From Candidatus Eiseniibacteriota bacterium (GTDB lineage: Bacteria > Eisenbacteria > RBG-16-71-46 > JABDJR01): a stretch of DNA of 64,000 bases. Of the stretch, positions 3,079 to 46,829 are shown one piece after another. The notes under the pieces were generated by a model. It made no database searches, was not told the DNA's origin, and saw only the letters and a list, made by a program, of their open reading frames with translations. The position numbers and the translations under genes are program-made. The DNA lies in NCBI GenBank assembly GCA_963728475.1, contig CAVSKL010000004.1:437840-501839 (forward strand), given 5' to 3'. Positions within the stretch are counted from its first letter, which is position 1. Each line of letters begins with the position of its first letter.

Positions 3079-3371
<293 letters not shown>

Positions 3372-3808
3372 CGGCGCGCCCCGGCCGTTCCTCAGCGCGT
3401 GCGCTCCGCGTCCTCGGATGCCCGTCCTGTGCGCCGGGGAACTTCGCGCACGACGCAGCTGCTTCACTTCATCGGAAGATGGGAGCCGGCGCCTCGCGAA
3501 CGCGCGATTCGCGCGCGCGGAAGCTTTGAAGAATACGAGGAGATGGTTGCCATTCAGTACGACTTGTTGTTCACTCGGAGTTCGTATCGCTCTCGTCCGA
3601 TCCGGCACCTAGGCTCTCGCACCAAGGCCGCTTACGTAGGTTCCCCACTTGTCGATTTGCGGGCCTTTTCCTGCCGCTCTTCGGGTAGTTGAGCCTGTCA
3701 TCCCGTAGGTGCCTGACGTACACTCTGCCGAACTTGACGCCAGGGGTGGCAACGCTTGCTTTGCGGTGATGGCGATTCCCTCCCGGGAACGCCGCTGAGG
3801 AGACTGGC

Positions 3809-5491
3809 TTGATGACCGGCCAGACGCCCATGGGCCGACGAGCCCTTGTCGGGTTTATCGGTTTCCTAGGGCTAAGTTCGATTTCGTTGATTCTGCTCTC
3901 CAGTCCATCGGCCGCGGCGACCATCGAGGGGTACGCGTGGCCGACTTCCGTCGTCCCCGGGGACCGGGTGGATCTCTGTGTATCCACCGACGCCCCAGCC
4001 TTCGATGTCCACGTGTACCGTGAGGGCGTCGAGCGGTCGCCGGTTCTCGGCCTGAACGGGATCCCGGGAGGGATCCAGACGACGCCGCCCGCTTCTTCCC
4101 AGCAGGGTTGCGGTTGGGTGCCTCTCAGTCACGTGTACATTCCCTGGAACTGGAAGAGCGGGGTCTACACGGTCAGGTTCAGTGCCCCGGGAGCCCCGGA
4201 CCGCTGGACGTTCTTCGTGGTGCGCGAGGCGGTTCCCGGCGCCCGCGACCGCATCCTGGTCAAGCTTCCCCTTTTTACCTGGCAGGCCTACAACAGCTGG
4301 GGAGGGAAGAGCCTCTACGGGTACAACTCGACGGGAGGCACCGCGGCGACCACCATCTCGTTCCGGCGGCCGTACGACGAGAACGAGGGGCTTTCCCGGC
4401 TTCCCGACGCGGTGCTGCCCTTCATCCGGTGGGCGGAGGCCGAGGGATTCTCGATCGCCTACTGCACCGACCTGGACCTCCATCTGAAGCCGTCCCTGGA
4501 GTCCTCCTACCCGCTCCTGGTGGATGTGGGGCATGACGGTTACTGGTCCAAGGAGATGCGGGACGCCGTCGAGAACCGGATCGACGCGGGCCGGAACGTG
4601 GCCTTCCTGAGCGGAAACACCTGCTGGTGGCAGGTGCGCCTCTCCGATGCCTCGGACCAGATCACCTGCTTCCGGAACCGCAATCAGGACCCTCTCTTCG
4701 GCATCGACAACTCGCGGGTAACGGTGAACTGGTACGCCTGGCCGGTGGGAAGGAGCGAGAATGCCTTGACCGGGGTGAGCTACCGGAACGGGGGTATCGT
4801 GAACGAGTACGGCATCTATCCGGAGAGCCGGGGATATGGAGGGTACACCGCCTACCGTACGGGCAGCTGGATCTACGCCGGAACCGGGATGGCCGACGGG
4901 CAGGTCTTCGGCCGGTCTCCCGCCGTCGTCGGGGACGAGACCGACGGCGCGCTTTTCACCATGGAGAACGGAGTGCCTGTGGCCACGGGCGCCGATGGAT
5001 CGCCGACCTCATTCGAGATTCTCGCCGTGTCGCCGGCGAGCTATGGGCACGCCACCATGGGGTTGTACTACCGGGGAGGGGCGACCGTGTTCACCGCGGC
5101 CACCATCCGCTGGGCCCAGGGCCTGGCTTCGGACCACACCGTCTCCCAGATCACCGAGAACGTCCTGAACCGCCTTTCCGGATCCACCTTGTCCAATGGG
5201 GGAGTGCCGGCGGTGTTGTCCCCCGAGTTGGCTGTCCGCATCCGCTCCAACCCGTGCCTGAACCGCGCCACCTTCGACTGGACGGCTACGAGCGAAGGCC
5301 CGCTCTCGCTCAGCGTCTTCGACGTGACGGGGCGCCGGGTGGCCGAGGTCGAACTCGGAGGCGTTCACGAGGGAGCGGCGACCTGGGACGGCAGGGACCG
5401 GCAGGGGCGCCCCGCCGCCGCCGGCTTCTACTTCGCGAGGATCACCGACGGCCGTCGTTCACAGGACGCGAAGTTCATCTTCGTGCGCTGA
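3809..5491 (+). CDS. secreted protein, hydrolase-like, with T9SS/FlgD-Ig-like C-terminal sorting domain
   Basis: N-terminal signal peptide. The C-terminal ~85 aa match the T9SS CTD pattern (SNPCLNRATFDW...LSVFDVTGRRVAEV...GFYFARI...KFIFVR). The central domain contains an LFTWQAYNSWGG motif that resembles the N,N-dimethylformamidase large-subunit-like family; that assignment is uncertain. Confidence 0.7.
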   Translation: MMTGQTPMGRRALVGFIGFLGLSSISLILLSSPSAAATIEGYAWPTSVVPGDRVDLCVSTDAPAFDVHVYREGVERSPVLGLNGIPGGIQTTPPASSQQGCGWVPLSHVYIPWNWKSGVYTVRFSAPGAPDRWTFFVVREAVPGARDRILVKLPLFTWQAYNSWGGKSLYGYNSTGGTAATTISFRRPYDENEGLSRLPDAVLPFIRWAEAEGFSIAYCTDLDLHLKPSLESSYPLLVDVGHDGYWSKEMRDAVENRIDAGRNVAFLSGNTCWWQVRLSDASDQITCFRNRNQDPLFGIDNSRVTVNWYAWPVGRSENALTGVSYRNGGIVNEYGIYPESRGYGGYTAYRTGSWIYAGTGMADGQVFGRSPAVVGDETDGALFTMENGVPVATGADGSPTSFEILAVSPASYGHATMGLYYRGGATVFTAATIRWAQGLASDHTVSQITENVLNRLSGSTLSNGGVPAVLSPELAVRIRSNPCLNRATFDWTATSEGPLSLSVFDVTGRRVAEVELGGVHEGAATWDGRDRQGRPAAAGFYFARITDGRRSQDAKFIFVR

Positions 5492-5516
5492 TCCTCGGCG
5501 GGCGCGGTTCCGGCGG

Positions 5517-5945
5517 TCAGCGTCCGATTCCCACCATCACCTTGTAGGGAGTGGGGGGACCCTGCTTGCGGATGGTCACGGTGACGAAGTAGCCGTTCCC
5601 GTGCGCGGACGCGAAGATGGTGGTGCCGCTGTCGGCCCACGGCGTTTCCGAAGCGGTGGAGGGATTGAGCTCCCATCCGTCCTGGGTCAGCGCCCGGCTA
5701 TAGAAGTCCCGGACATCCCTCGGTAAGAGCCCGCCGGCCGAGAACTGGGCCTCGTAGGTCTTGCCCTGGATGCTGCCGGTGAGGTGGGTCACCGAAGTCC
5801 CTTCGGGCAGGGGAAACACCTTGGCGAAGTCCTCGGGAAGCTTTGGGGAGGCCGCTCCCTGATTCTTGTCGCCCCCCTTCCCGCCACAGCCCAGGATCGC
5901 CGCGGCCAGAACCAGGAACGCGAACAAGCCCGCGAATCTGCGCAT
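5517..5945 (-). CDS. hypothetical lipoprotein
   Basis: Signal peptide plus lipobox (LVLAAAILGCGG). 142 aa with plausible composition, sitting in an otherwise non-coding gap. Confidence 0.6.
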   Translation of the reverse strand: MRRFAGLFAFLVLAAAILGCGGKGGDKNQGAASPKLPEDFAKVFPLPEGTSVTHLTGSIQGKTYEAQFSAGGLLPRDVRDFYSRALTQDGWELNPSTASETPWADSGTTIFASAHGNGYFVTVTIRKQGPPTPYKVMVGIGR

Positions 5946-6081
5946 CCTTGCCCTCCTTGAGCGAGTGAAATCCGCGGCAGTGTATCAGAGGGCGGCCGAA
6001 CGTTGGGGGGGGGCACGGATCAGTTGCCTCCGAACCCGCCGAGGTGATAACCTCCTCCGCCCGCCCGACATACAAGATTGC

Positions 6082-6169
<88 letters not shown>

Positions 6170-6553
6170 GAGGTTAGCTGTTCGGCCGATTGGCCTCAGG
6201 TCCGCCGGGAAATGGGGTCATTGGGGATGCCGTGCGAGCCGCGAAGCGGCGAGAACGGCAATCCCTCCCTCTCCGCCAGAACGGAGCGACCGAGGCAGTT
6301 GGCCTGAGGTCGCCGCCGGGGGCGGGGGCATCGGGGATGGCGTGCAGCGAGCGCAGCGAGTCGCGCGCCAATCCCTCCCTCTCCGCCAGAACGGAGCGAC
6401 CGAGGCAGTTGGCCTGAGGTCGCCGCCGGGGGCGGGGGCATCGGGGATGGCGTGCAGCGAGCGCAGCGAGTCGCGCGCCAATCCCTCCCTCTCCGCCAGA
6501 ACGGAGCGACCGAGGCAGTTGGCCTGAGGTCGTAGCCGGGGGCGGGGGCATCG
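6170..6553. repeat. 110-bp tandem repeat array (variant unit B1, identical units B2 and B3, truncated B4) downstream of tRNA-Ser(CGA); each full unit ends in ATCCCTCCCTCTCCGCCA (tRNA 3' end)
   Basis: Seen directly: 6279-6388 and 6389-6498 are 100% identical. The tRNA 3'-end 18-mer recurs at 6261-6278, 6371-6388 and 6481-6498. The core CATCGGGGAYGGCGTGCRAGC is shared with the locus-A unit. Confidence 0.9.
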
Positions 6554-6556
6554 TTG

Positions 6557-6955
6557 GATCGTGGAGTGTGGACCCGGGTCCACATCCGGCGAGCGCGGTC
6601 CGCGTTTGCCGCCCGCGGCTCAGGGACCCGGACCCACCGGTCGGGGAGCCGGGACCCGCGGCTCGGGAAAGTGGGACTCGCGGCTCGGGAAATCGGGACC
6701 CGGGTCCCGGTTCGCCCCGGCCGGCCGGATCGTCGCTCCCCGCCGTCGGCCGTTCGCCCCTCCATCCACGCTCGGGGGATCGTGGAATGTGGACCCGGGT
6801 CCACATCCGGCGAGCGCGGTCCGCGTTTGCCGCCCGCGGCTCAGGGGACCCGGACCCACCGGTCGGGGAGCCGGGACCCGCGGCTCGGGATAGGGGGACT
6901 CGCGGCTCGGGAAATCGGGACCCGGGTCCCGGTTCGCCCCAGCCGGCCGGACCGC
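6557..6955. repeat. ~221-bp tandem repeat (1.8 copies) containing perfect palindromes GTGGACCCGGGTCCAC and GGGACCCGGGTCCC
   Basis: Seen directly: 6557-6777 aligns with 6778-~6955 with few mismatches. The palindromes recur in each copy. Confidence 0.85.
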
Positions 6956-7052
6956 CACCGTCCGCCCTTGCCCGCTCGCGCCGGCCTGTGGCAAAATACC
7001 TCGCCCTGCCGCGGTAGTCCGCCTCCGGCCACCCCGCGCGCGGTTCCGGTTT

Positions 7053-7128
7053 GGGGATGTAGCTCAGATGGGAGAGCGCCTCGTTCGCAACGAGGAGGTC
7101 GGCGGTTCGATCCCGCTCATCTCCACCA
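7053..7128 (+). tRNA. tRNA-Ala (anticodon CGC)
   Basis: Acceptor GGGGATG/CATCTCC with G3:U70 (the Ala identity element), anticodon loop TTCGCAA, T-arm GGTTCGATCC, 3' ACCA. Confidence 0.85.
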
Positions 7129-7248
7129 TCCTGGCCCGGCCGCTCCTTCCGGGAGCGGCCGGGGCCCCCGGGCTCCACGCCCCGGGGGAGAATCCCGGGC
7201 CCCTCCCCCGGGCTTTCGCGTTTCCCGGCCCCGAAGCCGGCCGCCCCC

Positions 7249-7472
7249 GTCCCATCCCTGGCCCCCCCGCCCCCCCGTCCCATCCCTGGCCCCCCCGCCC
7301 CCCCGTCCCATCCCTGGCCCCCCCGCCCCCCCGTCCCATCCCTGGCCCCCCCGCCCCCCCGTCCCATCCCTGGCCCCCCCGCCCCCCCGTCCCATCCCTG
7401 GCCCCCCCGCCCCCCCGTCCCATCCCTGGCCCCCCCGCCCCCCCGTCCCATCCCTGGCCCCCCCGCCCCCCC
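7249..7472. repeat. 28-bp C-rich tandem repeat x8 (GTCCCATCCCTGGCCCCCCCGCCCCCCC)
   Basis: Seen directly: the period of 28 nt is confirmed by recurring GTCCCA at 7277, 7305 and 7333. The overlapping spurious ORF shows an 84-nt (3x28) protein periodicity. Confidence 0.9.
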
Positions 7473-7644
7473 GGCATGATTCCTGTTCTCTTCCATCCCC
7501 AGCCCTCCCCTCGAAGCGTGCCTCCCTTCCGCCCCATCCCCACCCGAACCGTGCCTCCCGCCTCGCGCGCCCGCTCCCCCCACCCAGCCCTTCCCGCCCA
7601 CCCGCGGAATCCCTCCCTTGCCGCGGAAACTCCCGCGAGCGCGG

Positions 7645-7673
7645 TTGCCGTCGGCGCGGCGGCATGGGATAAT
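7645..7673 (+). promoter_or_regulatory. candidate sigma70-type promoter (TTGCCG-17-GATAAT) upstream of SRP RNA/dnaX
   Basis: TTGCCG at 7645-7650, a 17-nt spacer, GATAAT at 7668-7673. Confidence 0.4.
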
Positions 7674-7894
7674 GGCCGACTCGGCATCCACCCAACCGTT
7701 TGTCGGACAATCGCTTGGATGAGGCGTCCGGCCCCCCCCCGGGGGGAAGGCCGGCGGCCCGGTAGGGTAGGATGCCCACAGCAGGATTTCTGGGTCGTGC
7801 TAGGCGGGGAGTCAGCGGTGCCCTGTACTCGCAATCCGCTATAGCGAGGCTGAACTCCCGCCCTAGGCCCCCGATTAACGTGCGGGTCGCGGGA

Positions 7895-8030
7895 ACCGGC
7901 GGCGTTGATGACCAGGTCCGGCGCAACCAAGGCTTGTGAACCCCGTCAGGACCGGAAGGTAGCAGCGGTAAACAATTCCCTCGGTGTGCCGCCGGTATGC
8001 CTGGCCGGAGCCAGCCGCCCGTGGCCGGTG
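7895..8030 (+). ncRNA. ffs: signal recognition particle RNA (4.5S/SRP RNA), boundaries approximate
   Basis: Domain IV motif GUCAGGACCGGAAGGUAGCAGCGG matches the conserved GGUCAGGUCCGGAAGGAAGCAGCC. The 3' strand GGUGUGCCGCCGGUAUGCCUGG resembles the E. coli GCGUGUGCCGGGAUGUAGCUGG. The position directly upstream of dnaX-ybaB-recR is the conserved arrangement. Confidence 0.6.
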
Positions 8031-8108
8031 TTCGTCGTGAGGTCGACGGCGGGTGCACGACCCTTTTCTTCCCGGCGCGCCCTCTGGGCGCGTGGTCCGG
8101 AGGGCGTC

Positions 8109-10024
8109 ATGTCCTATCTCGTTCTGGCCCGCAAGTACCGTCCGCAGGTCTTCGCCGACGTGGTGGGCCAGGAGCACGTCACCCGCACCCTGGCCAACGC
8201 CATCGCCGCCGGCCGGGTCGCTCACGCCTACCTATTCTGCGGCCCGCGCGGGGTGGGCAAGACCACCGCCGCCCGCATCCTGGCCAAGGCGCTGAACTGC
8301 GAGAAAGGCCCGGCGCCGGTTCCGTGCAACGAATGCCACCCGTGTCTCGAGATCACCGGCGGCCGGAGCATGGACGTGCTCGAGATCGACGGGGCCTCGA
8401 ACCGCGGCATCAACGAGGTGCGGGAGCTGCGCGAGAACGTGCGCTACACCCCCGCCGGCGGCCGGTCGAAGGTCTACATCATCGACGAAGTGCACATGCT
8501 CACCAACGAGGCCTTCAACGCGCTCCTGAAGACCCTCGAGGAGCCCCCCGCCCACGTGGTGTTCGTGCTCGCCACCACCGAGCCGTTCAAGCTGCCGGCC
8601 ACCATCCTCTCCCGCTGCCAGCGCTTCGACTTCGCCCGCATCCCCGCCCGCGAGATCGCCGGCCACCTGCGCCGGCTCATGGACGAGGAAGATATCAAGG
8701 CTTCCGACGACGCGCTCTCGCTGGTGGCCCGCCGCGCCGCCGGAGGGGTTCGCGATGCGCTTTCGCTCATGGATCAGATCATCTCCGCCGCCGACGGGGA
8801 CATCGATCGCGAGACGGTCGAGAACGTGCTGGGCCTGGTGGGGGCGGACTTCTATTACACCCTGCTGGACCATCTCGCCGCCGGCGACGCGGCCGGTGCG
8901 CTCACCCTGCTCGACACCATCTACACCCGGGGCGCCGATCTCGGCGAGCTCGCCGCGGGGCTGGCCGGACACCTCCGTGATCTCCTCCTGATCCGGATCG
9001 ACCCCAAAAGCCTGGCCCCGATCGTGGAAGCGCCCGAATCCGAGGTCCCGCGGCTGGAGGAACAGGCCGCCCGTTTCTCCCGGGGGACCCTGGTGGAGCT
9101 GGTCGACGGCGCCGCCGAGATCGCGGTGGCGCTCCGGCGGAGCGAGCATCCCCGGCTCACCATGGAGCTGGCTTTGGCCGAGATGGCCGAGGCGGCTCAG
9201 CGAGTGCCGCTGGGCGAACTCAGCCGGCGGCTCCTGGAACTGGAATCGCGGCTGGGCGGGGAAAGCCCGCCTCCGGACTCCCCGGCCAGGCCGCCGGCGA
9301 ATCCCCGGCGCGCGCGGTCCAACCCCTCCGGGACGCCGGGTGCCCCCGCGCCGGCCAAACCCGCCGGGGCCCCGGGCGCTTCTGCCCCGGCCATGTCTTC
9401 TCCGGGGTCCCGGGCCGCGCCGGCCCCGCGCCCGGCGTCGCCGTCCCCCCCAAGCCCGCCCCCCGGGCTCCCTCCCGGTCGAATCGGCCGGCGGGGGAGG
9501 AGCCGGCCGGCGATGAACCCCCGGCTCCGGAGTCGCGGGCCGAGGCCTCGGGCGGGGCCGCGGAGCTGTGGGAGGCCTGCCTGGGCGCCCTGAAGGAACG
9601 AAACAAACGACTGTGGGCCACCTGCCACCACGCGGTCGCGACCGGGTTCGCGGCGGACGGGGGGCTGGTGCTCCGGGCGCGGACCGCGGCCTCGATTCTC
9701 GCCCACGCCCTGGACGAGGAGGACGCGCGGAACCTCCTGGGCGAGATCCTCGCCGCCGCCGGCGCGGCCAGCTCTACGGTGTGGATGGAGGGCCGGGCCC
9801 CTCGTGCGGCGGCGAAAGCGGCCGCGGAAGCGGACGCGAAAGCGGCTACCGCCCCGGACGAGCCGCCCGGCGGGGAAGGCGACGCCCGCGAGCCGGCTCC
9901 GGAGCGGTCCGCTCCCGCCTCCCCGGCCCCGGACCAGGACGCCCGCAGCATGGGGCAGCTGTTCAAGGACGAGCCGATGTTGCAGAAGGCCATCGACCTC
10001 TTCGACGGGGAAGTCCTGCCTTAG
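8109..10024 (+). CDS. dnaX: DNA polymerase III subunit tau/gamma, reading frame discontinuous near 9440-9480
   Basis: Walker A GPRGVGKTT, zinc module CNECHPC and sensor SRCQRFDF sit in the 8109 frame, which ends at 9593. A conserved C-terminal domain (AELWEACLGALKERNKRLW...LFKDEPMLQKAIDLFDGEV) is open in the -1 frame from before ~9470 to 10024. Confidence 0.8.
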
Positions 10025-10057
10025 GACCCCGCCGCCAACCAAGGAGACCGCGAGCGC

Positions 10058-10384
10058 ATGAAGGGAATGGGAGACCTCAACAAGCTGATGAAGCAGGCCC
10101 AGGAGATGCAGGCCCGGATGGCCCAGGTCCAGGAGGATCTGGGGCGGCGCGAGGTCGAGGCCACCGCCGGGGGCGGCATGGTCACGGTGCGCATGAACGG
10201 GAAGCAGGAACTCCTCGCGGTCCAGATCAAGCCGGAAGCGGTGGATCCCGACGACGTGGAGATGCTGGAGGACCTGGTCACCGCCGCCTTCCGTGAGGCC
10301 CACAAGAAGGCCGAGGACCTGATGCAGAGTGAGATGGCCAAGGTGACCGGCGGCATGGGCCCCGGCATGCCCGGCCTCTTCTAG
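10058..10384 (+). CDS. ybaB: nucleoid-associated protein YbaB/EbfC
   Basis: 108 aa with characteristic MKGMGDLNKLMKQAQEMQ...VTVRMNGKQELLAVQI. Conserved position between dnaX and recR. Confidence 0.9.
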   Translation: MKGMGDLNKLMKQAQEMQARMAQVQEDLGRREVEATAGGGMVTVRMNGKQELLAVQIKPEAVDPDDVEMLEDLVTAAFREAHKKAEDLMQSEMAKVTGGMGPGMPGLF

Positions 10385-10399
10385 GCTCCGCCCCCGTCC

Positions 10400-11017
10400 A
10401 TGCAGTTCTCCAGCCGATCCGTCGAGAACCTAGTGGAGGAGCTGACCAAGCTCCCCGGAGTGGGGCGGAAGAGCGCCCAACGCCTGGCTTTCTTCCTGCT
10501 CAAATCCTCCCGCGAGGAAGCGCTCGGCCTGGCCGAGGCCATCCGCGCGGTCAAGGAGCAGGTGCGTACCTGCTCGGTGTGCGGCAACTTCACCGAGGAC
10601 GATCCCTGCCTCATCTGCCGGGACGAGAAGCGTGCCCGCGACGTGGTGTGCGTGGTAGAGCAGCCCATGGACGTGCTCGCGGTCGAGGCTTCGGGCGGGT
10701 TCCGCGGGCAGTATCACGTGTTGCGGGGCGCCCTCAACCCGCTCGAGAACATGGGGCCCGACGACATCCGCGCCCGCGAGCTGGTGGACCGCCTCCGCTA
10801 CGGTGAAGTGCGCGAGGTGATCCTGGCCACCAACCCCAACCCGCCCGGTGAGGCCACCGCGCACTTCCTCGCCGACCTCCTGAGGCCGTTGCCGGTCAAG
10901 GTCACCCGCATCGCCCGGGGGATCCCGGTGGGGGGGGACCTGGAGTATTCGGACCAGGCCACGCTGGCCCGCGCGCTCCAGGGCCGGAAGCGCATGGACG
11001 AGGAGGAGGCGGAGTAG
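10400..11017 (+). CDS. recR: recombination protein RecR
   Basis: HhH (KLPGVGRKSAQRLAFFLL), C4 zinc finger (CSVCGNF...CLIC) and Toprim domain. Confidence 0.9.
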   Translation: MQFSSRSVENLVEELTKLPGVGRKSAQRLAFFLLKSSREEALGLAEAIRAVKEQVRTCSVCGNFTEDDPCLICRDEKRARDVVCVVEQPMDVLAVEASGGFRGQYHVLRGALNPLENMGPDDIRARELVDRLRYGEVREVILATNPNPPGEATAHFLADLLRPLPVKVTRIARGIPVGGDLEYSDQATLARALQGRKRMDEEEAE

Positions 11018-11170
11018 CGGGCGACGCCGTGGACCGGGGGGCGGTTCCGCCCCGTCCGTGCTAGAGTCTCGGCCGATGTTGCTCCACGCCTCTCTCCCAT
11101 ATCGCGCGGCACGTGCACGTCGCGCGGCGGCGGTTGGGCCCGGGTCCGGCGCTCCCGCTCCGAGGCCTCG

Positions 11171-11680
11171 GTGAAACGGACGCCCGCCGCGGGGACACCC
11201 TTGGGGGTGCGTCTCGCCGCCACCTTCTTTCTGATCGGGGAGGCCGCCCCCTTTGCTCCCGCCACCTTCGGCTCGGCGGCCACCCTGCCGTTCATCTTCC
11301 TCTACGCGGGCCGCCCGCTCTGGATCCAGATCGCGGTGCTGGCGGTGGTGACCTGGATCGCAGTGGTGGTGAGCGGGATGGCGGAGCGCCACTACGGCCA
11401 CGACGCCAAGGCGATCGTGGTGGACGAGGTGGCGGGCATGCTGGTGACCTTCGCCGGGGTACCGTGGCTGGGGCACTGGCAGGGGAACCTGCTGCTCTGC
11501 TTCTACGGATTTCTGCTTTTCCGGATCCTGGACGTGGTCAAGCCCTTCCCCGCGGGCAGGGCCCAGGATCTTCCCGGCGGGATCGGGGTGGTGGCCGACG
11601 ACGTCATGGCCGGCCTCTACGCCAACCTGGCCCTCCGGGTGCTGCTCCGGGTGTTCGGGGGAATGGGAACGGGGCTCTAG
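11171..11680 (+). CDS. pgpA: phosphatidylglycerophosphatase A
   Basis: PgpA motifs VVDEVAGM and ILDVVKPFP, plus a hydrophobic profile. Confidence 0.75.
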   Translation: MKRTPAAGTPLGVRLAATFFLIGEAAPFAPATFGSAATLPFIFLYAGRPLWIQIAVLAVVTWIAVVVSGMAERHYGHDAKAIVVDEVAGMLVTFAGVPWLGHWQGNLLLCFYGFLLFRILDVVKPFPAGRAQDLPGGIGVVADDVMAGLYANLALRVLLRVFGGMGTGL

Positions 11681-11704
11681 CCCCCCGCGGACGAGGAGGG
11701 AGCG

Positions 11705-12061
11705 ATGACGCGAGCGGCGGGGATCACCGGGATGCTGCTGGGGGCGATCGCCCTGGTTTGGGGGCTCACCACGGGGGCGGGGTCGGCGGCCATGGTGGAA
11801 GGGGTCGCGGTCGGTGGGGTCGTGCTGGTTCTATCCGCCCTCACGCTCCTCCGGACGGTGTGGGCCGAGATCGTGCTGGCCGCGGCCGGTCTCGCCGTCC
11901 TCTCCCGGTTCCTACCCCATTATTTCCAGACCTATCGCATGTGGCCGGACCTGCCGCTCCTGCTGCTCGGGTCCTTCACCTTCGGACTGGCTCTCCTCGG
12001 CCTTCTCATGGACCGGGTGCGTCCGGAAAACGGGGGGCGGGAGCGCCGGTCTCACTTGTGA
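11705..12061 (+). CDS. hypothetical small integral membrane protein
   Basis: 118 aa with 3-4 predicted TM helices and no motifs. Confidence 0.5.
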   Translation: MTRAAGITGMLLGAIALVWGLTTGAGSAAMVEGVAVGGVVLVLSALTLLRTVWAEIVLAAAGLAVLSRFLPHYFQTYRMWPDLPLLLLGSFTFGLALLGLLMDRVRPENGGRERRSHL

Positions 12062-12078
12062 ATTTCCTCACAAAGTTG

Positions 12079-12107
12079 CTGACAGGCCGGGCCCGGATCG
12101 GTATGAT
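12079..12107 (+). promoter_or_regulatory. candidate sigma70 promoter (CTGACA-17-TATGAT) in the lower-GC leader upstream of the ACIII operon
   Basis: TTGCTGACA at 12076-12084, a 17-nt spacer, TATGAT at 12102-12107. It lies ~450 nt upstream of the actA start. Confidence 0.4.
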
Positions 12108-12553
12108 GCGCGCTTGGTCAGGCTGAACGACCGTTGTCATCCCCGGTTCGGTCCGTTTCAACTCATTGATCGGTAAGGACTTGGGGGACAGGAACGACAA
12201 AGGGGCGGATTTGGATTATCCAATCTTTGTCATCCTGCCGAATTCCGGACTCCTATACCCTGCCCGGGTCGGAGCCTCGGAAGGGGACGGTGGTTGGGTC
12301 GTAGTCTGCTAGACGACGGTTTTTGTCACCAATCCGGCGCCGGACGCTGAGTCCGGAGCGGCCGGATCGAGCGGCTGGCCTCCGGTCCATCCCGACGGCC
12401 CGGGACCCATGCCGCCCGCCGGGATTCCCGGGCGATGCGCCCTCCCCGGGGAGGGGCCGCCCCGCGCCGGACAAGGACCCGTGGACGAGGGGGGGACGCG
12501 CCGGTTTCCGCGCGCCCGCTCCCGCCGAGGGTCGGGAGGTTTGGAAACCCGCG

Positions 12554-13198
12554 ATGTTGTTTCCGAAATGGATGAACCGGGCTCCCTTCATCGCCGGGGG
12601 CGCCGGAACCCTGCTCTTCGTCGGTGTGATCGTCGCCTTCATCTACTTCATGTCGCCCTATAACACCCAGGTCGGGTACTCCCCCGAGCAACCGGTCCCC
12701 TATAGCCACAAGCTGCACGCGGGCGACCTGGGAATCGACTGCCGCTACTGCCATGCCGCGGTCGAGCGTTCGGCGGTGGCCATGGTTCCGCCCACTCAGA
12801 CCTGTATGAACTGCCACAAGCTCATCAAACCCGACAGCCCCAAGCTGCTCCCGGTCCGCGAGAGTTGGGCCACCGGCAATCCGGTGACGTGGACCCGGGT
12901 CCATCACGCTCCCGACTTCGTCTACTTCAACCACAGCATCCACGTGAACTCGGGGGTGGGCTGCGAGAGCTGCCACGGCCGGATCGACCAGATGGAGCGC
13001 GTGTTCCAGGCCAAGCCGCTGAACATGGCCTGGTGCCTGGACTGCCACCGCCATCCCGAGAAGTTTCTGCGGCCCAAGGACCAGGTGACGACCATGGGCT
13101 ACCGGCCCGCGGGGGGCGACCAGATCGCCGAGGGGTTGAAGCTGGTCCAGGCCTACGACATTCATCCCACCACCAACTGCTCGGGGTGCCACCGATGA
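12554..13198 (+). CDS. actA: Alternative Complex III pentaheme cytochrome c subunit ActA
   Basis: N-terminal TM anchor and five CxxCH motifs (CRYCH, CMNCH, CESCH, CLDCH, CSGCH). The stop overlaps the actB start (ATGA). Confidence 0.85.
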
Positions 13199-29580: not shown

Positions 29581-31461
29581 CTACACCAGGTCCTTCAGGG
29601 TGAGCGCGACCTCCCGCGAGGCGCCGTCCCGCGCCACCGTGAGCTGGATCACCGTACCCGGGGCCTCGGTCCGGAAGCGGGAACGCAGCTCGAGCAGCGT
29701 CTTGTCCCCGACCGGCCGCCCGTCCACCGCGGTGATGCGGTCGCCCGCGGCCAGGCCCGAGGCCTCGGCGGGGCCGCCGGCGGTCACGTCCATCACCCGG
29801 AGCCCGTCGCCGTCCCGGTTCAGCCACATCCCGGAGCGGTCGTAGACTTCGCGGGCGGGCGCGGCGGGATTCGGCTCGAAGTAGATCGTGAGCCCGCCGT
29901 AGTCGAAGGTGAGGTTGAACCGCGCCAGCACCCCCGCGCCCACGTTCCCGGCGGCGTAGGCGTCGGTGAAGGCGCCCTTGGTCTGGGCGGTAAGATCGAG
30001 CACCGGGCCCGGCACCGGCACCGCGCCCAGCTTAAGCTCCCCGCCCCGGGCCAAGCTCCCGCGGGCGGGTCCGCCCACCCCCCAGCCGGTCACCGCGGTG
30101 TACCGGGGAGCGTACTTGGCCGCCAGGCCGTGTTTGTCCACGAAGGGGGCGAGCAGCGTCACCGAGGCCCGGCTTCCGGTGTCCAGGTCGAACTTCCCCG
30201 GCACCCCGTCGATGGAGCCTTCCACCTGGGGGATGGTGCCGTTGAACACGAACGGGACCGCGGTCCCCGGTCCGTCGTAGTGGAACGCCTCCGGCACGGT
30301 GAGGGTGAGGGTGCTCTTCTCGTAGTCCACCCGGACCACGAACCGCTTGAACACCTCGTAGCCCACCAGCCCCAGCATGGGGACCCCCTCCACGTCGGAG
30401 TAGGACTCGAGCGGGAACACCGCGAAGATCTGGTCGTGCAGGGTGACGCCGCCCAGGGAGAGCGAATCCACCTTCACCATCCCCACGTCCACCGAGCCCT
30501 CACCGGCGCCCTTCCCCTGGAACGCGCCCTGGGGCTCGAGCCCCAGCTCCCCGGCCAGGGTGGGGGTGATCACGTTGGAGCCCCCGGTGTCGCAGAGGAT
30601 GCGGTAGGGCCCCTTGCCGTTCAGGCGCACGTCGATGTAGATGTGCCGGTTCAGGAACTTGAAGGGGACGGTGGCCGAGGTCGCGCCGCCGGCCAGGGTG
30701 AAGTCGGGAGGAGGCGGCGCCGGCGCGGAGAAGACGGCGGGGTCGAACCCGGCGTTCACCGCCACCGAGTCCACGGTCACGAACTGGTCGTAACGGGAGT
30801 CGCCGTTGGTGGAGCGGATGGAGTGGGGGATGAGGATTCCGCCCACCTTCCGGTAGTCGGAAAAGAACACGGCGCGGGTCTCGGTGGCCCCCCTCTCCAC
30901 CGTGCGATCGAAGGTCCAGGTGCCGGTGTCCACCCAGAGATCGAAGGGCCGGCCGCCGGCGGGGGTGAAACCGATCACCCGGAAGGTCCGCCCGTCGTGG
31001 GTGGAGTCGCCGCGGTCCACCACCGAGGCCGCCCCCCGGTCGGGGTACCACCACGCGTGGGCGTTCCGGAACGCCTCGTCCATCGCCCCCTCGCGGGCGT
31101 CGTCGCCGTTCTCGATCTGGACCTGGCCGGAGGCGTCCCGGGCCCACAGGGTGTCGCCGTCGAAGCCCTCGGCCCCGTGAATCGGGCCCAGCTCGAAGCG
31201 CGACACGTAGCGTCCGCTCACCACGTCGATCCAGGTCTCCGCGGTTCCGGAAAGGCCGCCGACCTTGACCGAGGACTCGACCCGGGTGTTCCGCACCCCG
31301 TCCCAGGCGCCGCCGCCCAGGGCTTCCTTGGCCCGGGCGAGAACCTGCTCGACGGGGATCGCGGCGTGGGCGGGGGGGGCGGCGAGGGCGGCAAGGGCGG
31401 CGAGGGCGGCGAGGGCGGCAAGGGCGGCGAGGGCGGCGATCAGCGGGAAACGGCGGGTCAC
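29581..31461 (-). CDS. secreted retropepsin-like (two Asp-protease halves) protease with C-terminal PDZ domain
   Basis: Signal peptide with an (AAL)n repeat. Two D-T-G sites (ILCDTGGSNV and FDLDTGSRAS) and a C-terminal PDZ (GLAAGDRITAVDGRPV). Confidence 0.8.
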   Translation of the reverse strand: MTRRFPLIAALAALAALAALAALAALAAPPAHAAIPVEQVLARAKEALGGGAWDGVRNTRVESSVKVGGLSGTAETWIDVVSGRYVSRFELGPIHGAEGFDGDTLWARDASGQVQIENGDDAREGAMDEAFRNAHAWWYPDRGAASVVDRGDSTHDGRTFRVIGFTPAGGRPFDLWVDTGTWTFDRTVERGATETRAVFFSDYRKVGGILIPHSIRSTNGDSRYDQFVTVDSVAVNAGFDPAVFSAPAPPPPDFTLAGGATSATVPFKFLNRHIYIDVRLNGKGPYRILCDTGGSNVITPTLAGELGLEPQGAFQGKGAGEGSVDVGMVKVDSLSLGGVTLHDQIFAVFPLESYSDVEGVPMLGLVGYEVFKRFVVRVDYEKSTLTLTVPEAFHYDGPGTAVPFVFNGTIPQVEGSIDGVPGKFDLDTGSRASVTLLAPFVDKHGLAAKYAPRYTAVTGWGVGGPARGSLARGGELKLGAVPVPGPVLDLTAQTKGAFTDAYAAGNVGAGVLARFNLTFDYGGLTIYFEPNPAAPAREVYDRSGMWLNRDGDGLRVMDVTAGGPAEASGLAAGDRITAVDGRPVGDKTLLELRSRFRTEAPGTVIQLTVARDGASREVALTLKDLV

Positions 31462-38799: not shown

Positions 38800-40656
38800 A
38801 TGAGAACATCTTGTCGCCGGCCCGGGGGCGCGGCGTGGCCGGCCCCGGCGGCGCTCTTGCTCTGCGTCTCCTTGGCCGCCTCCCCGGCGGCGGCCCGGCC
38901 CCGGGCGCTCGCAACTCCCGCGGGCGCGGCCACCACCGGGGGGATCGCATCGGCGGCCCAGAGCACGCCCCAGCTCGTCACCTACCAGGGGCGGTTCCTG
39001 GATCCGGAGGGCAAGCCCCTGGCCGGCCCGGTGGACCTCACCTTCCGGCTTTACACCGCCGCCGCCGGCGGGACGCAGCTCTGGTTCGAGACCCACCCCC
39101 AGGTGCCGCTGGTGGACGGGGTGGCCACGGTGATGCTGGGGTCGCTGGTCACCTTCCCCTTCGAGGCCTTCACCGAACCCGCCCGCTACCTGGGAATCAC
39201 GGTGGGAAACGGCGCCGAGATGACCCCCCGGATGGCGGTGACCTCGGTGCCCTTCGCGTTCCAGGCGGAGCGCCTGCAGGGGCTGGGGGCGGCCGACTTC
39301 GAGCCCAGGGGGGCGGTGTCGTCGCTCGGCGACTCGCTGGCCGCCGGCGACGGCAGCCCGCCCAACCAGGGGGCGAACCGGGTGGCCTGGAACAACCTCA
39401 CCGGCGTCCCCGACGGTTTCGCCGACGGTGAGGACCAGGGGGCGACCGACCACGGCCAGCTCACCGGGCTCCTGGACAACGACCATCCCCAGTACATGCT
39501 GCGGAGCGACCTCAAGAACTCGGACGGCGACCCTCCCGACGAGGGTTCGAACCTGGTGAGCTGGAACAACCTCACCGACGTGCCCTTCGGGTTCGCGGAC
39601 GGGACGGACAACCGCGGCATCGACCCGGGCACGGTCACCGGCACGGACGTCGCCGATTCCTCGCTCACCGGAATCGATCTCGCCGACAGCACCGTGACCG
39701 GCCGGAACGTGGCCCCGCGCACGCTGGCCGGCACGCACCTGGCCCTCCACTCGGTGGGAGGGGACGAGCTCGCCTTCGACAGCGTTTCCGGCGCCGAGAT
39801 CCTCGACGGGAGCGTGTCCGGCGCCGACGTCGAGGACGGGTCCCTCACCGGGTCCGACCTGGCGCCCGGTGCGGTGGGGAGCGCCGCCCTCGCCGGCGGC
39901 GCGGTGACCGGAGCGGCGCTGGCCGCGGGAGCGGTGGACTCGACGTCCATCGCCGACGGCGGGGTTTCGGGGGCGGACCTGGCTCCGGGCGCGGTGGGGA
40001 GCGCCGCCCTCGCCGGCGGCGCGGTGACCGGAGCGGCGCTGGCCCCGGGGGCGGTGGACTCGGCGTCGATCGCGGCCGGCGGGGTATCGGGGGTGGACTT
40101 GGCTCCCGGCGCGGTGGACCGAGGCCGCCTCGCCGACGCCGCCGTGGACAGCAGCGCCCTCGGGGAGGGGGCGGTCACCGGACTCCGGATCCGCGACGAG
40201 TCGATCACCGGCGCGGACATCAAGAACGGCAGCGTGCGCGCGGTGGATCTCATGGAGGGGGCGGGCGGGGAGTACCTGGGCGAGCCCGACGTCCACCCGG
40301 TCGCCGCGGCGGCGGCCACCGTGCTCTACAAGGACATCACCTGTCCGGCCGACGGCTGGGTGCTGGCGGTGGCCACCGCCCAGGGCTGCGTGCAGACCGC
40401 CGCCGGAGGCGGGGAGCACCCGCTGACCTTCTCGGTCTCCGCGGCCGACGGCGCGCCGGACCCGGTGGCCAGGGTCGAGTACCGGGTGGTGGGAGCGGCC
40501 GGGGCCACCCAGTGCGCGCCGGTGGTCTCGCAGAAGCTCTTCACGGTGCAGAAGGGGCTCCGGACCTTCTACGTGGTGGCGCAGGGGGATGGGGCCGCCA
40601 CCATGGAGGTCTCGCAGGTGAACCTCAGCCTGATCTTCCTGGGCACCCATTATTAG
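38800..40656 (+). CDS. secreted tail-fibre-like repeat protein (paralog B)
   Basis: Colinear with paralog A over the N-terminal ~330 aa (LVTYQGRFLDPEGKPLAGPVDLTFRLY...GSPPNQG.N.V.WNNL..VP.GFADG, LTGLLDNDHPQYMLRSDLK), followed by a longer repeat tract. Confidence 0.65.
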   Translation: MRTSCRRPGGAAWPAPAALLLCVSLAASPAAARPRALATPAGAATTGGIASAAQSTPQLVTYQGRFLDPEGKPLAGPVDLTFRLYTAAAGGTQLWFETHPQVPLVDGVATVMLGSLVTFPFEAFTEPARYLGITVGNGAEMTPRMAVTSVPFAFQAERLQGLGAADFEPRGAVSSLGDSLAAGDGSPPNQGANRVAWNNLTGVPDGFADGEDQGATDHGQLTGLLDNDHPQYMLRSDLKNSDGDPPDEGSNLVSWNNLTDVPFGFADGTDNRGIDPGTVTGTDVADSSLTGIDLADSTVTGRNVAPRTLAGTHLALHSVGGDELAFDSVSGAEILDGSVSGADVEDGSLTGSDLAPGAVGSAALAGGAVTGAALAAGAVDSTSIADGGVSGADLAPGAVGSAALAGGAVTGAALAPGAVDSASIAAGGVSGVDLAPGAVDRGRLADAAVDSSALGEGAVTGLRIRDESITGADIKNGSVRAVDLMEGAGGEYLGEPDVHPVAAAAATVLYKDITCPADGWVLAVATAQGCVQTAAGGGEHPLTFSVSAADGAPDPVARVEYRVVGAAGATQCAPVVSQKLFTVQKGLRTFYVVAQGDGAATMEVSQVNLSLIFLGTHY

Positions 40657-45683: not shown

Positions 45684-46829
45684 TTGGCGGCTCTGGTACC
45701 GTCTCGGGCTCGACCACTCCGGCACACGCTCACGAACCCCGACACCCTCCCCCGGAGGTGCGCGATCAAGGCCCTCATCCTGAGCGGCGGCAAGGGCACC
45801 CGCCTCCGCCCCATCACCTTCACCAGCGCCAAGCAGCTGGTTCCGGTCGCCAACAAGCCGATCCTCTACTACGGCATCGAGGCCATTCGCGACGCCGGCA
45901 TCACCGACGTCGGCATCGTGGTCGGCGACACCCACGAGGAGATCCGGGCCTCGGTGGGAGACGGTTCCCGCTGGGGGGTCCGGGTGACCTACATCCGGCA
46001 GGAGGCGCCCCTGGGCCTGGCCCACGCGGTCAAGGTGAGCCGCGACTACCTGGGCGGCGACCGCTTCGTGATGTTCCTCGGCGACAACCTGATCAAGGAC
46101 GGCATCACCCCGCTGGTGCGTGAGTTCGAGGCCGAGCGCCCCGACTGCCAGATCCTCCTCGCCCACGTCAAGAACCCGCAGGAGTTCGGGGTGGCGGAGC
46201 TGAGCGGGAACCGGGTAGTCCGCCTGGAGGAGAAGCCGGCCCGGCCGCGATCCGACCTCGCCCTGGTCGGGGTCTACATGTTCGACCCCTCCGTGTTCGA
46301 GGCGGTGGACGCCATCCGCCCTTCGGCGAGGGGGGAGCTGGAGATCACCGACGCCATCCAGTACCTGATCGACACCCGGCGCGACGTCCGCAGCCACGTC
46401 ATCACCGGCTGGTGGAAGGACACCGGCAAGCTCGAGGACATGCTCGAGGCCAACCGCATCGTGCTGGCGGGGATCGGCACCCGCATCGACGGCACCGTGG
46501 ACGCGGACAGCCGGATCGAGGGGGACGTGGTGATCGGCAAGGGGAGCCGGGTGGTGGGGAGCACGCTCCGCGGGCCCCTCATCGTGGGGGAGGACTGCCT
46601 GATCGAGGACGCGTTCGTGGGCCCCTTCACCTCCATCCACGACCGCGCGGTCATCCGGGGGAGCGAGGTGGAGCACTCCATCCTGCTCGAGGACGCCCGG
46701 GTGATCGGCCTGGAGAAGCGGATGGAGTCGAGCCTTCTCGGCCGCCACGTGGAGATCCTGCGCTCGGACAAGCGCCCGGCCACCTATCGTTTCCTGGTGG
46801 GGGACATGGGGCGGATCGAGGTCGGCTAG
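45684..46829 (+). CDS. rmlA: glucose-1-phosphate thymidylyltransferase, long form (nucleotidyltransferase plus C-terminal LbH domain)
   Basis: LILSGGKGTRLRPITFTSAKQLVPVANKPIL nucleotidyltransferase signature and a C-terminal hexapeptide repeat region. The start is uncertain, because the N-terminal 25 aa are atypical. Confidence 0.8.
   Translation: MAALVPSRARPLRHTLTNPDTLPRRCAIKALILSGGKGTRLRPITFTSAKQLVPVANKPILYYGIEAIRDAGITDVGIVVGDTHEEIRASVGDGSRWGVRVTYIRQEAPLGLAHAVKVSRDYLGGDRFVMFLGDNLIKDGITPLVREFEAERPDCQILLAHVKNPQEFGVAELSGNRVVRLEEKPARPRSDLALVGVYMFDPSVFEAVDAIRPSARGELEITDAIQYLIDTRRDVRSHVITGWWKDTGKLEDMLEANRIVLAGIGTRIDGTVDADSRIEGDVVIGKGSRVVGSTLRGPLIVGEDCLIEDAFVGPFTSIHDRAVIRGSEVEHSILLEDARVIGLEKRMESSLLGRHVEILRSDKRPATYRFLVGDMGRIEVG

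Follow-up and report, generated by a model that had tools for sequence, protein, structure and literature searches.

A perfect C-rich 28-bp tandem array between the tRNA-Ala and SRP RNA genes of a high-GC bacterium, probably a young lineage-specific minisatellite

Eight identical C-rich units occupy an RNA gene spacer

Within the 64-kb window (the whole stretch of DNA analyzed here, with a G+C content of 70%), positions 7249 to 7472 consist of eight identical head-to-tail 28-bp copies of GTCCCATCCCTGGCCCCCCCGCCCCCCC. We interpret this array, with a probability of roughly 60%, as a young, lineage-specific, noncoding minisatellite that arose by slippage in an intergenic spacer of an uncultured bacterium of about 70% G+C. 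It specifies no product and is unconserved, and the most economical reading of the spacer in which it lies is that of a fast-evolving and dispensable region.

TRF delimits the array to positions 7244 to 7473, with a period of 28, 8.2 copies, 100% matches, no indels, and a score of 460. The borders are sharp, and direct reading finds CCCCCG microhomology at both of them (7244 to 7249 and 7468 to 7473), 28 nt out of phase. The unit is 75% C and carries two C7 runs, and the 224 nt of the array contain sixteen C7 and sixteen C3 tracts; 16 of the 35 runs of at least seven C or G in the whole window, all of them C7, fall inside these 224 bases. When up to three mismatches were allowed, a search for the unit recovered only the eight copies of the array in 64 kb and nothing in 100 shuffles, and C7GC7 with at most one mismatch is confined to the array within the window. 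Minisatellites are head-to-tail copies of a unit of about 10 to 100 bp, and the array, with 8.2 copies of 28 bp at 100% identity, has this makeup. A preliminary description of this DNA had reported eight tandem 28-bp C7-G-C7 units and 16 G7 runs on the complementary strand within 224 bp; sequence reading, TRF, and the pattern search agree with the former, and the sixteen C7 runs counted on the plus strand agree with the latter.

The genes adjoining the array all lie on the plus strand, in the order tRNA-Ala, SRP RNA (ffs), dnaX, ybaB, and recR (Table 1). As had also been described, the array is located between tRNA-Ala (7053 to 7128) and the presumed SRP RNA promoter (7645 to 7673), and its distance from that promoter, earlier put at about 170 bp, is 173 bp from the end of the array to the −35 hexamer. 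In a promoter scan of positions 6800 to 8300 this is the sole such site, one being found against 0.1 expected. The promoter-like site ahead of tRNA-Ala scores 8/12 against a scan threshold of 9/12, and TTGCCC-N18-TGnCAGAAT is also located upstream of tRNA-Ala in four related loci (L082 to L085); from this conserved position, we infer that the site at 6968 to 6997 is the tRNA-Ala promoter. A terminator scan called no canonical intrinsic terminator between tRNA-Ala and the ffs promoter. A 13-bp G+C hairpin and further hairpins are predicted there, and the last of them (7193 to 7212), together with the bases that follow it (7193 to 7223), may form a weak intrinsic-terminator-like site. The DnaX protein encoded downstream is present in identical form on a 610-kb contig in NCBI/ENA, and its named relatives belong to Candidatus Eisenbacteria, with 56 to 66% identity.

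Table 1. Features of the array locus in the window and spacer lengths in the related loci
Feature	Position	Strand	Description
Promoter-like site of tRNA-Ala (putative)	6968..6997	+	TTGCCC, 18-nt spacer, TGgCAAAAT
tRNA-Ala (anticodon CGC)	7053..7128	+	ARAGORN; Rfam RF00005, 64.9 bits
13-bp G+C hairpin right behind tRNA-Ala, without U tract	7135..7163	+	RNA fold of 7126-7250
Hairpin CCCGGG-N7-CCCGGG (7193-7212), then CUUUCGCGUUU	7193..7223	+	RNA fold of 7126-7250
Array	7244..7473	+	8 perfect 28-bp units (7249-7472) + 6 nt; CCCCCG at both borders
G-rich strand of array	7249..7472	-	8 x (G7-C-G7-CCA-GGG-AT-GGG-AC)
C-rich nonrepetitive tail	7474..7644	+	C 92, G 33 of 172 nt counted over 7473-7644
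Sigma-70-like promoter	7645..7673	+	TTGCCG-17-GATAAT, TG upstream; promoter scan; presumed SRP RNA promoter
Leader, promoter to SRP RNA	7674..7794	+	C9/G6 hairpin at about 7732-7747; direct reading
Large bacterial SRP RNA (ffs)	7795..8060	+	Rfam RF01854 (Bacteria_large_SRP), 195.7 bits, full length
dnaX	8109..9593	+	494 aa as assembled; relatives about 600 aa
tRNA-Ala/SRP RNA spacer, L082			about 127 nt
tRNA-Ala/SRP RNA spacer, L083			about 121 nt
tRNA-Ala/SRP RNA spacer, L084			about 134 nt
tRNA-Ala/SRP RNA spacer, L085			about 269 nt
tRNA-Ala/SRP RNA spacer, L206			about 111 nt
tRNA-Ala/SRP RNA spacer, L207			about 51 nt

The array is absent from six related loci

Six syntenic loci (tRNA-Ala, SRP RNA, dnaX, ybaB, and recR) were gathered via DnaX homologs of 64 to 83% identity. 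The spacer between tRNA-Ala and SRP RNA measures 666 nt in the window against about 51 to 269 nt in these relatives, and none of their six spacers contains a tandem repeat. C6GC6 has zero occurrences in L001 to L085, a set that includes the relatives L082 to L085, with L206 and L207 outside the scan. The absence of the array from 6 of 6 relatives argues against a conserved function, and the short, repeat-free spacers indicate that the compact state is ancestral; this lack of conservation is compatible with a recently acquired function. Approximately 400 extra C-rich bases in the window's spacer, the array included, are unique to this lineage among the loci compared, and BLAST of parts of the spacer against the window and the relatives returned only chance matches of at most 17 nt. 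A scan of GTDB genomes with DnaX was dominated by a generic Walker-type pattern, with matches of only 39 to 53% identity, and closer relatives bearing the array may exist unseen.

The related loci also differ in how the SRP RNA gene appears to be expressed. In L082, L083, L084, L206, and L207, the SRP RNA begins 51 to 134 nt past tRNA-Ala without an obvious promoter. The short spacer and the lack of an obvious promoter suggest co-transcription and processing, and in such compact loci the SRP RNA is probably processed out of a tRNA-Ala co-transcript. The L085 locus is an intermediate state: its spacer has a 9-bp hairpin followed by U5 behind tRNA-Ala and, about 150 nt ahead of the SRP RNA, a promoter-like TGGGCA-18-CATAAT at a position equivalent to 7645 to 7673 of the window. 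We observe a promoter-like site of its own and a leader of about 120 to 150 nt for the SRP RNA both in the window (7645 to 7794) and in L085 (2481 to 2659). Homology of the two leaders was considered and rejected, the alignment being marginal: a colinear 27-nt block is identical at 20 of 27 positions, and 18 of 300 shuffles score equally.

Beyond these loci, the exact 27-mer of the unit was not found in JGI metagenome contigs or IMG/VR. A search for the looser pattern C6GC6-N8-24-C6GC6 gave, among the matches listed, no regular array by TRF. In almost all of the contigs with paired C6GC6 among these matches (L086 to L205, from JGI metagenomes), the blocks belong to irregular poly-C/poly-G tracts, most of them at the ends of contigs, and such tracts look like low-complexity artifacts of sequencing or assembly rather than biological arrays. 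No match among 5.8 billion predicted proteins (clusters) was returned for a chimeric query joining the translations of the two array strands, a search in which the HMMER composition filter may hide some.

Coding, CRISPR, island, and dispersed-repeat readings are rejected

All six frames of the unit are free of stop codons. A coding repeat can nevertheless be set aside, since each ORF crossing the array has its start or its end inside one of the two flanking RNA genes (tRNA-Ala or SRP RNA), and the spacer has room for no complete array-containing ORF of 30 aa or more. The units abut directly, with no unique spacers between them, which is incompatible with a CRISPR array. For a remnant of a tRNA-targeted island, a direct copy of the tRNA-Ala 3′ end (attR) was sought downstream and none was found: with three mismatches allowed, the terminal 20 nt of tRNA-Ala match at one other place only, on the opposite strand at 46192 to 46211, which lies under long ORFs, has no tRNA-like flanks, and is probably coding sequence. 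A dispersed element was rejected because the array is a single locus in 64 kb and parts of the spacer match elsewhere by chance only (at most 17 nt). Finally, the flanks hold no recognizable decayed copies of the unit, with shuffled sequences aligning to it equally well in 142 of 300 cases for the left flank and 44 of 300 for the right.

The G-rich strand has extreme G-quadruplex potential

The preliminary description ascribed very strong G-quadruplex (G4) potential to the minus strand and proposed a G4Hunter score as a check. Over the 224 nt of the array this score is −2.43 (+2.43 for the minus strand), and the other 224-nt windows in 64 kb do not exceed |1.03|. Each G7CG7 on the minus strand can be read as GGG-G-GGG-C-GGG-G-GGG, a G4 motif with single-nucleotide loops, and 8 of the 19 nonoverlapping canonical PQS (G3+ N1-7 x4) of that strand in 64 kb are located in the array. 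When G-quadruplexes are enabled, ViennaRNA folds each G7CG7 block into one three-layer G4. The array thereby shows what defines a canonical G4 motif, namely at least four G tracts of at least three, loops of 1 to 7, and a high G4Hunter score, and the very strong potential is borne out computationally by all three analyses. An i-motif candidate has at least four C tracts on one strand; the plus strand has this makeup, in keeping with its earlier description as such a candidate.

Puig Lombardi et al. (2019, PMC6614823) report that single-nucleotide-loop G4 motifs have the highest stability in vitro and destabilize minisatellites most strongly in yeast, and that their most stable variants (C or T loops) are depleted in most genomes. 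That eight such motifs persist beside essential RNA genes, when stable short-looped motifs are reported as depleted and genetically unstable (PMC6614823), could point to selection or to a special helicase capacity. Transcription of tRNA-Ala, ffs, and dnaX uses the G-rich bottom strand as template, and the role of a transcriptional barrier that had been suggested for the array is plausible as a prediction from its sequence.

A more ambitious reading makes the array a G4/i-motif regulatory element or contingency locus, in which folded structures upstream would modulate the ffs promoter or block polymerases and slippage would vary this effect among cells. The extreme G4Hunter score and the eight tandem single-nucleotide-loop motifs speak for it, as do the high in vitro stability of such motifs and their destabilizing effect in yeast minisatellites (PMC6614823), and intergenic G4-forming G-rich repeats of GGGNATC heptamers are known from Xanthomonas and Nostoc (Rehm et al. 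2015, PMC4692102). We nevertheless hold it to be very improbable. At 173 bp ahead of the −35 hexamer, and outside promoter, 5′ UTR, and ORF, the array offers no obvious read-out of copy number; it is not conserved in relatives; folding in duplex DNA in vivo is hypothetical; and ffs and tRNA-Ala are housekeeping genes, unlikely targets of phase variation. The same anatomy contradicts the earlier proposal of a phase-variable spacer, and a phase-variable contingency locus was accordingly rejected, the array lying in no ORF and not between promoter elements. Membership in a GGGNATC-type G4 repeat family was likewise rejected, since the unit has 28 nt and is not a heptamer, and since the array is confined to one locus within 64 kb and the relatives lack it.

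The predicted plus-strand transcript resembles a Rho-loading site

A plus-strand RNA of the array would have a C/G ratio of 21:4 per unit, or 5.25, and a minimum free energy (MFE) of −28.5 kcal/mol, compared with −104.8 ± 15.4 kcal/mol for 100 other 224-nt windows, which makes it about 5 SD less stable. The array is part of the longest stretch in 64 kb with a C/G ratio of at least 3 (7216 to 7638, in 78-nt windows), a value that 0.6% of the windows reach. A rut site comprises at least 70 to 80 nt with more C than G, regularly spaced C, little structure, and no translation, and RhoTermPredict uses a C/G threshold of 1 (PMC6407284). We find these properties in the array: it is C-rich and G-poor over at least this length, with C/G above 1 and regularly spaced C, and it is poorly structured, as judged by MFE, and untranslated, with no ORF confined to the spacer. 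Its predicted plus-strand transcript hence resembles a Rho-loading site.

This resemblance could reflect selection. The RNA of 7216 to 7638 would then be a maintained Rho-loading site, a Rho-dependent terminator or insulator that ends the tRNA-Ala unit, uncouples ffs from the tRNA promoter, and replaces the hairpin and U5 intrinsic terminator of L085. Its C/G ratio of 5.25 within the longest C/G-rich stretch of the window, an RNA about 5 SD less stable than average, and the agreement with the rut definition of PMC6407284 are all consistent with such a role, and no intrinsic terminator was called before the ffs promoter, where L085 has its 9-bp hairpin and U5. However, a perfect tandem array is not needed for a rut site, for which the nonrepetitive C-rich tail would suffice; the strong hairpins at 7135 to 7163 and 7193 to 7212 may already end transcription; C-rich stretches easily arise in high-GC genomes; and 6 of 6 relatives do without the array. 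With transcription of the region and the action of Rho both hypothetical, we consider a selected terminator unlikely.

Still less likely, in our estimate, is a combination of the two properties in which the array is a selected, copy-number-tunable transcription insulator made of eight template-strand G4 motifs and a Rho-loading RNA. Such an insulator would have arisen to free the SRP RNA gene from its ancestral co-transcription with tRNA-Ala, and the number of units, altered by slippage, would determine how much read-through arrives at ffs. For the minisatellite that we favor, any effect would most likely be a passive one: it might stop read-through from tRNA-Ala by Rho loading, possibly also by a G4 block on the template strand, and ffs would then be expressed from its own promoter at 7645 to 7673.

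Homopolymer runs limit the precision of the assembled array

The dnaX gene gives an indication of assembly quality. Its frame changes between about 9356 and 9490 (tblastn), in a stretch with a C7 run (9445 to 9451) and C6 runs, and the assembled product has 494 aa, compared with a single ORF of about 600 aa in relatives. The frame change falls in a Pro/Ala-rich linker, and the conserved C-terminal part runs on in another frame to position 10021. The cause is either an assembly error in a homopolymer or a genuine frameshift; because it occurs near a C7 run in a metagenome assembly, the lengths of the C runs in the array, and hence its exact period, are uncertain. A Logan contig found via YbaB and RecR (run ERR11718636; L001 1 to 3496) is 100% identical to window positions 9445 to 12940 over 3,496 bp, which indicates that the same strain is present in that run. 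The contig begins exactly at the dnaX C7 run, and the array is outside it.

Could error-prone long-read metagenome assembly or consensus have produced the array itself, or falsified the number of its copies or the lengths of its homopolymers? The shortened DnaX, with its frame change at C7 and C6 runs, would fit, as would split or fused genes in sister assemblies (DnaX and YbaB fused in L084, hydrolase and deaminase genes truncated in L083), and the sole independent contig stops at a C7 run, short of the array. Yet long reads easily span 224 bp, a 28-bp periodicity with eight exact copies is atypical of basecalling, and ordinary sequence agrees perfectly with the Logan contig over its whole length. 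Errors would most plausibly be of ±1 in run length, leaving the interpretation unchanged. We therefore regard an artifact as quite unlikely and the existence of the array as likely real, its C-run lengths and copy number being given as assembled in a single assembly. Since identical sequence contexts in a long-read consensus can give identical errors, the identity of the copies could be exaggerated.

Other repeats in the window and in related loci

Four repeat arrays are present in RNA gene spacers within about 4.4 kb. Tandem repeats of 106 to 110 bp extend from the 3′ end of tRNA-Ser genes (gga and cga) in the window (3170 to 3372 and 6170 to 6553) and in relatives (L082, 5682 to 6325; L083, 6886 to 7322; L207, 1967 to 2178 and 2330 to 2401). 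Their units all end in the last 17 to 19 nt of the tRNA, including CCA (TCCCTCCCTCTCCGCCA). The unit interiors differ between genomes; just ahead of the tRNA fragment they retain a hairpin closed by GGGGA/TCCCT, in which 6 of 15 pairs show compensatory changes. Amplification of scars left by miniature integrative elements may account for these repeats, or they may represent a structured module; in L082, a gene for an rve-family transposase/integrase is found directly behind the tRNA-Ser repeat array. Kinship between the C-rich array and the 110-bp repeats was tested and rejected, a 19/23 reverse-complement match being at chance level (8 matches against a shuffle mean of 4.1, range 0 to 11).

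Between tRNA-Ser(cga) and tRNA-Ala, the window also contains a duplication of about 221 bp (6551 to 6760 versus 6772 to 6982) with 90 to 96% identity, each copy of which holds four 22-bp subrepeats (6612 to 6702 and 6833 to 6924); palindromes such as GTGGACCCGGGTCCAC and GGGACCCGGGTCCC are found in it. Farther downstream are a 60/120-bp repeat at 39856 to 40175 (2.2 to 2.7 copies of 120 bp, 84 to 90% identical) and a 9-bp GCGGCGAGG array at 31361 to 31439 (8.8 copies), both of which are probably coding repeats given their 3n periods. In L084, a gene with an Ice_binding domain (1 to 1639) has 6.3 copies of a 262-bp coding repeat, and DnaX and YbaB are called as a single 741-aa fusion (5154 to 7379), probably via an indel error.

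Origin of the array and comparison with known repeats

A 28-bp segment flanked by a 6-nt direct repeat is a classical substrate for a first slipped-strand duplication, and expansion is easy once two copies exist. In the scenario we favor, the tRNA-Ala/SRP RNA spacer was enlarged from about 50 to 270 nt to its present 666 nt, and a 28-bp segment between CCCCCG direct repeats in its C-rich part would have been duplicated by slipped-strand mispairing. Further slippage or unequal recombination would then have amplified it to eight identical copies. The identity of the copies and the sharp borders suggest that the expansion is recent, both recency and instability being what we infer from perfect identity in one genome.

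If real and stable, the array would be an unusually clean bacterial case of tandem single-nucleotide-loop G4 motifs beside essential RNA genes. It would then offer a convenient substrate for studying replication and transcription across such DNA in a high-GC bacterium, the possible use of a C-rich repeat as a Rho-loading module, and the rate at which such an array changes. As a single unconserved locus in one metagenome-assembled genome, it has its value mainly as a curiosity and a test sequence, and not as evidence of a new mechanism.

With bacterial intergenic minisatellites or VNTRs, whose units of about 10 to 100 bp arise by slipped-strand mispairing, the array shares identical head-to-tail units, a noncoding site, microhomology at the borders, and lineage-specific presence; the composition of its unit, at 75% C with two C7 runs, goes well beyond the usual range, and the array is known from one genome. 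Like the single-nucleotide-loop G4 class (PMC6614823), the tandem G7-C-G7 reads G3N1G3N1G3N1G3, although the known minisatellites of that class are eukaryotic, whereas the array is bacterial and known from its sequence. The GGGNATC repeats of Xanthomonas and Nostoc are, like the array, intergenic and tandem, with a G-rich strand that provides the four tracts a G4 requires. They consist of 7-nt units at many loci genome-wide, with a preference for 4 units, in contrast to the 28-nt unit of the array, which holds a complete G4 motif per unit at a single locus in 64 kb. With the rut sites of Rho-dependent terminators, the array has in common a C-rich, G-poor, unstructured, and untranslated stretch of more than 80 nt downstream of a gene. 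Natural rut sites, however, are not perfect tandem repeats, and for the array both transcription and Rho dependence are conjectural. In sum, the array adds a further example to known kinds, since it combines the features of a bacterial intergenic minisatellite with those of a G4-forming repeat and of a C-rich tract resembling a rut site.
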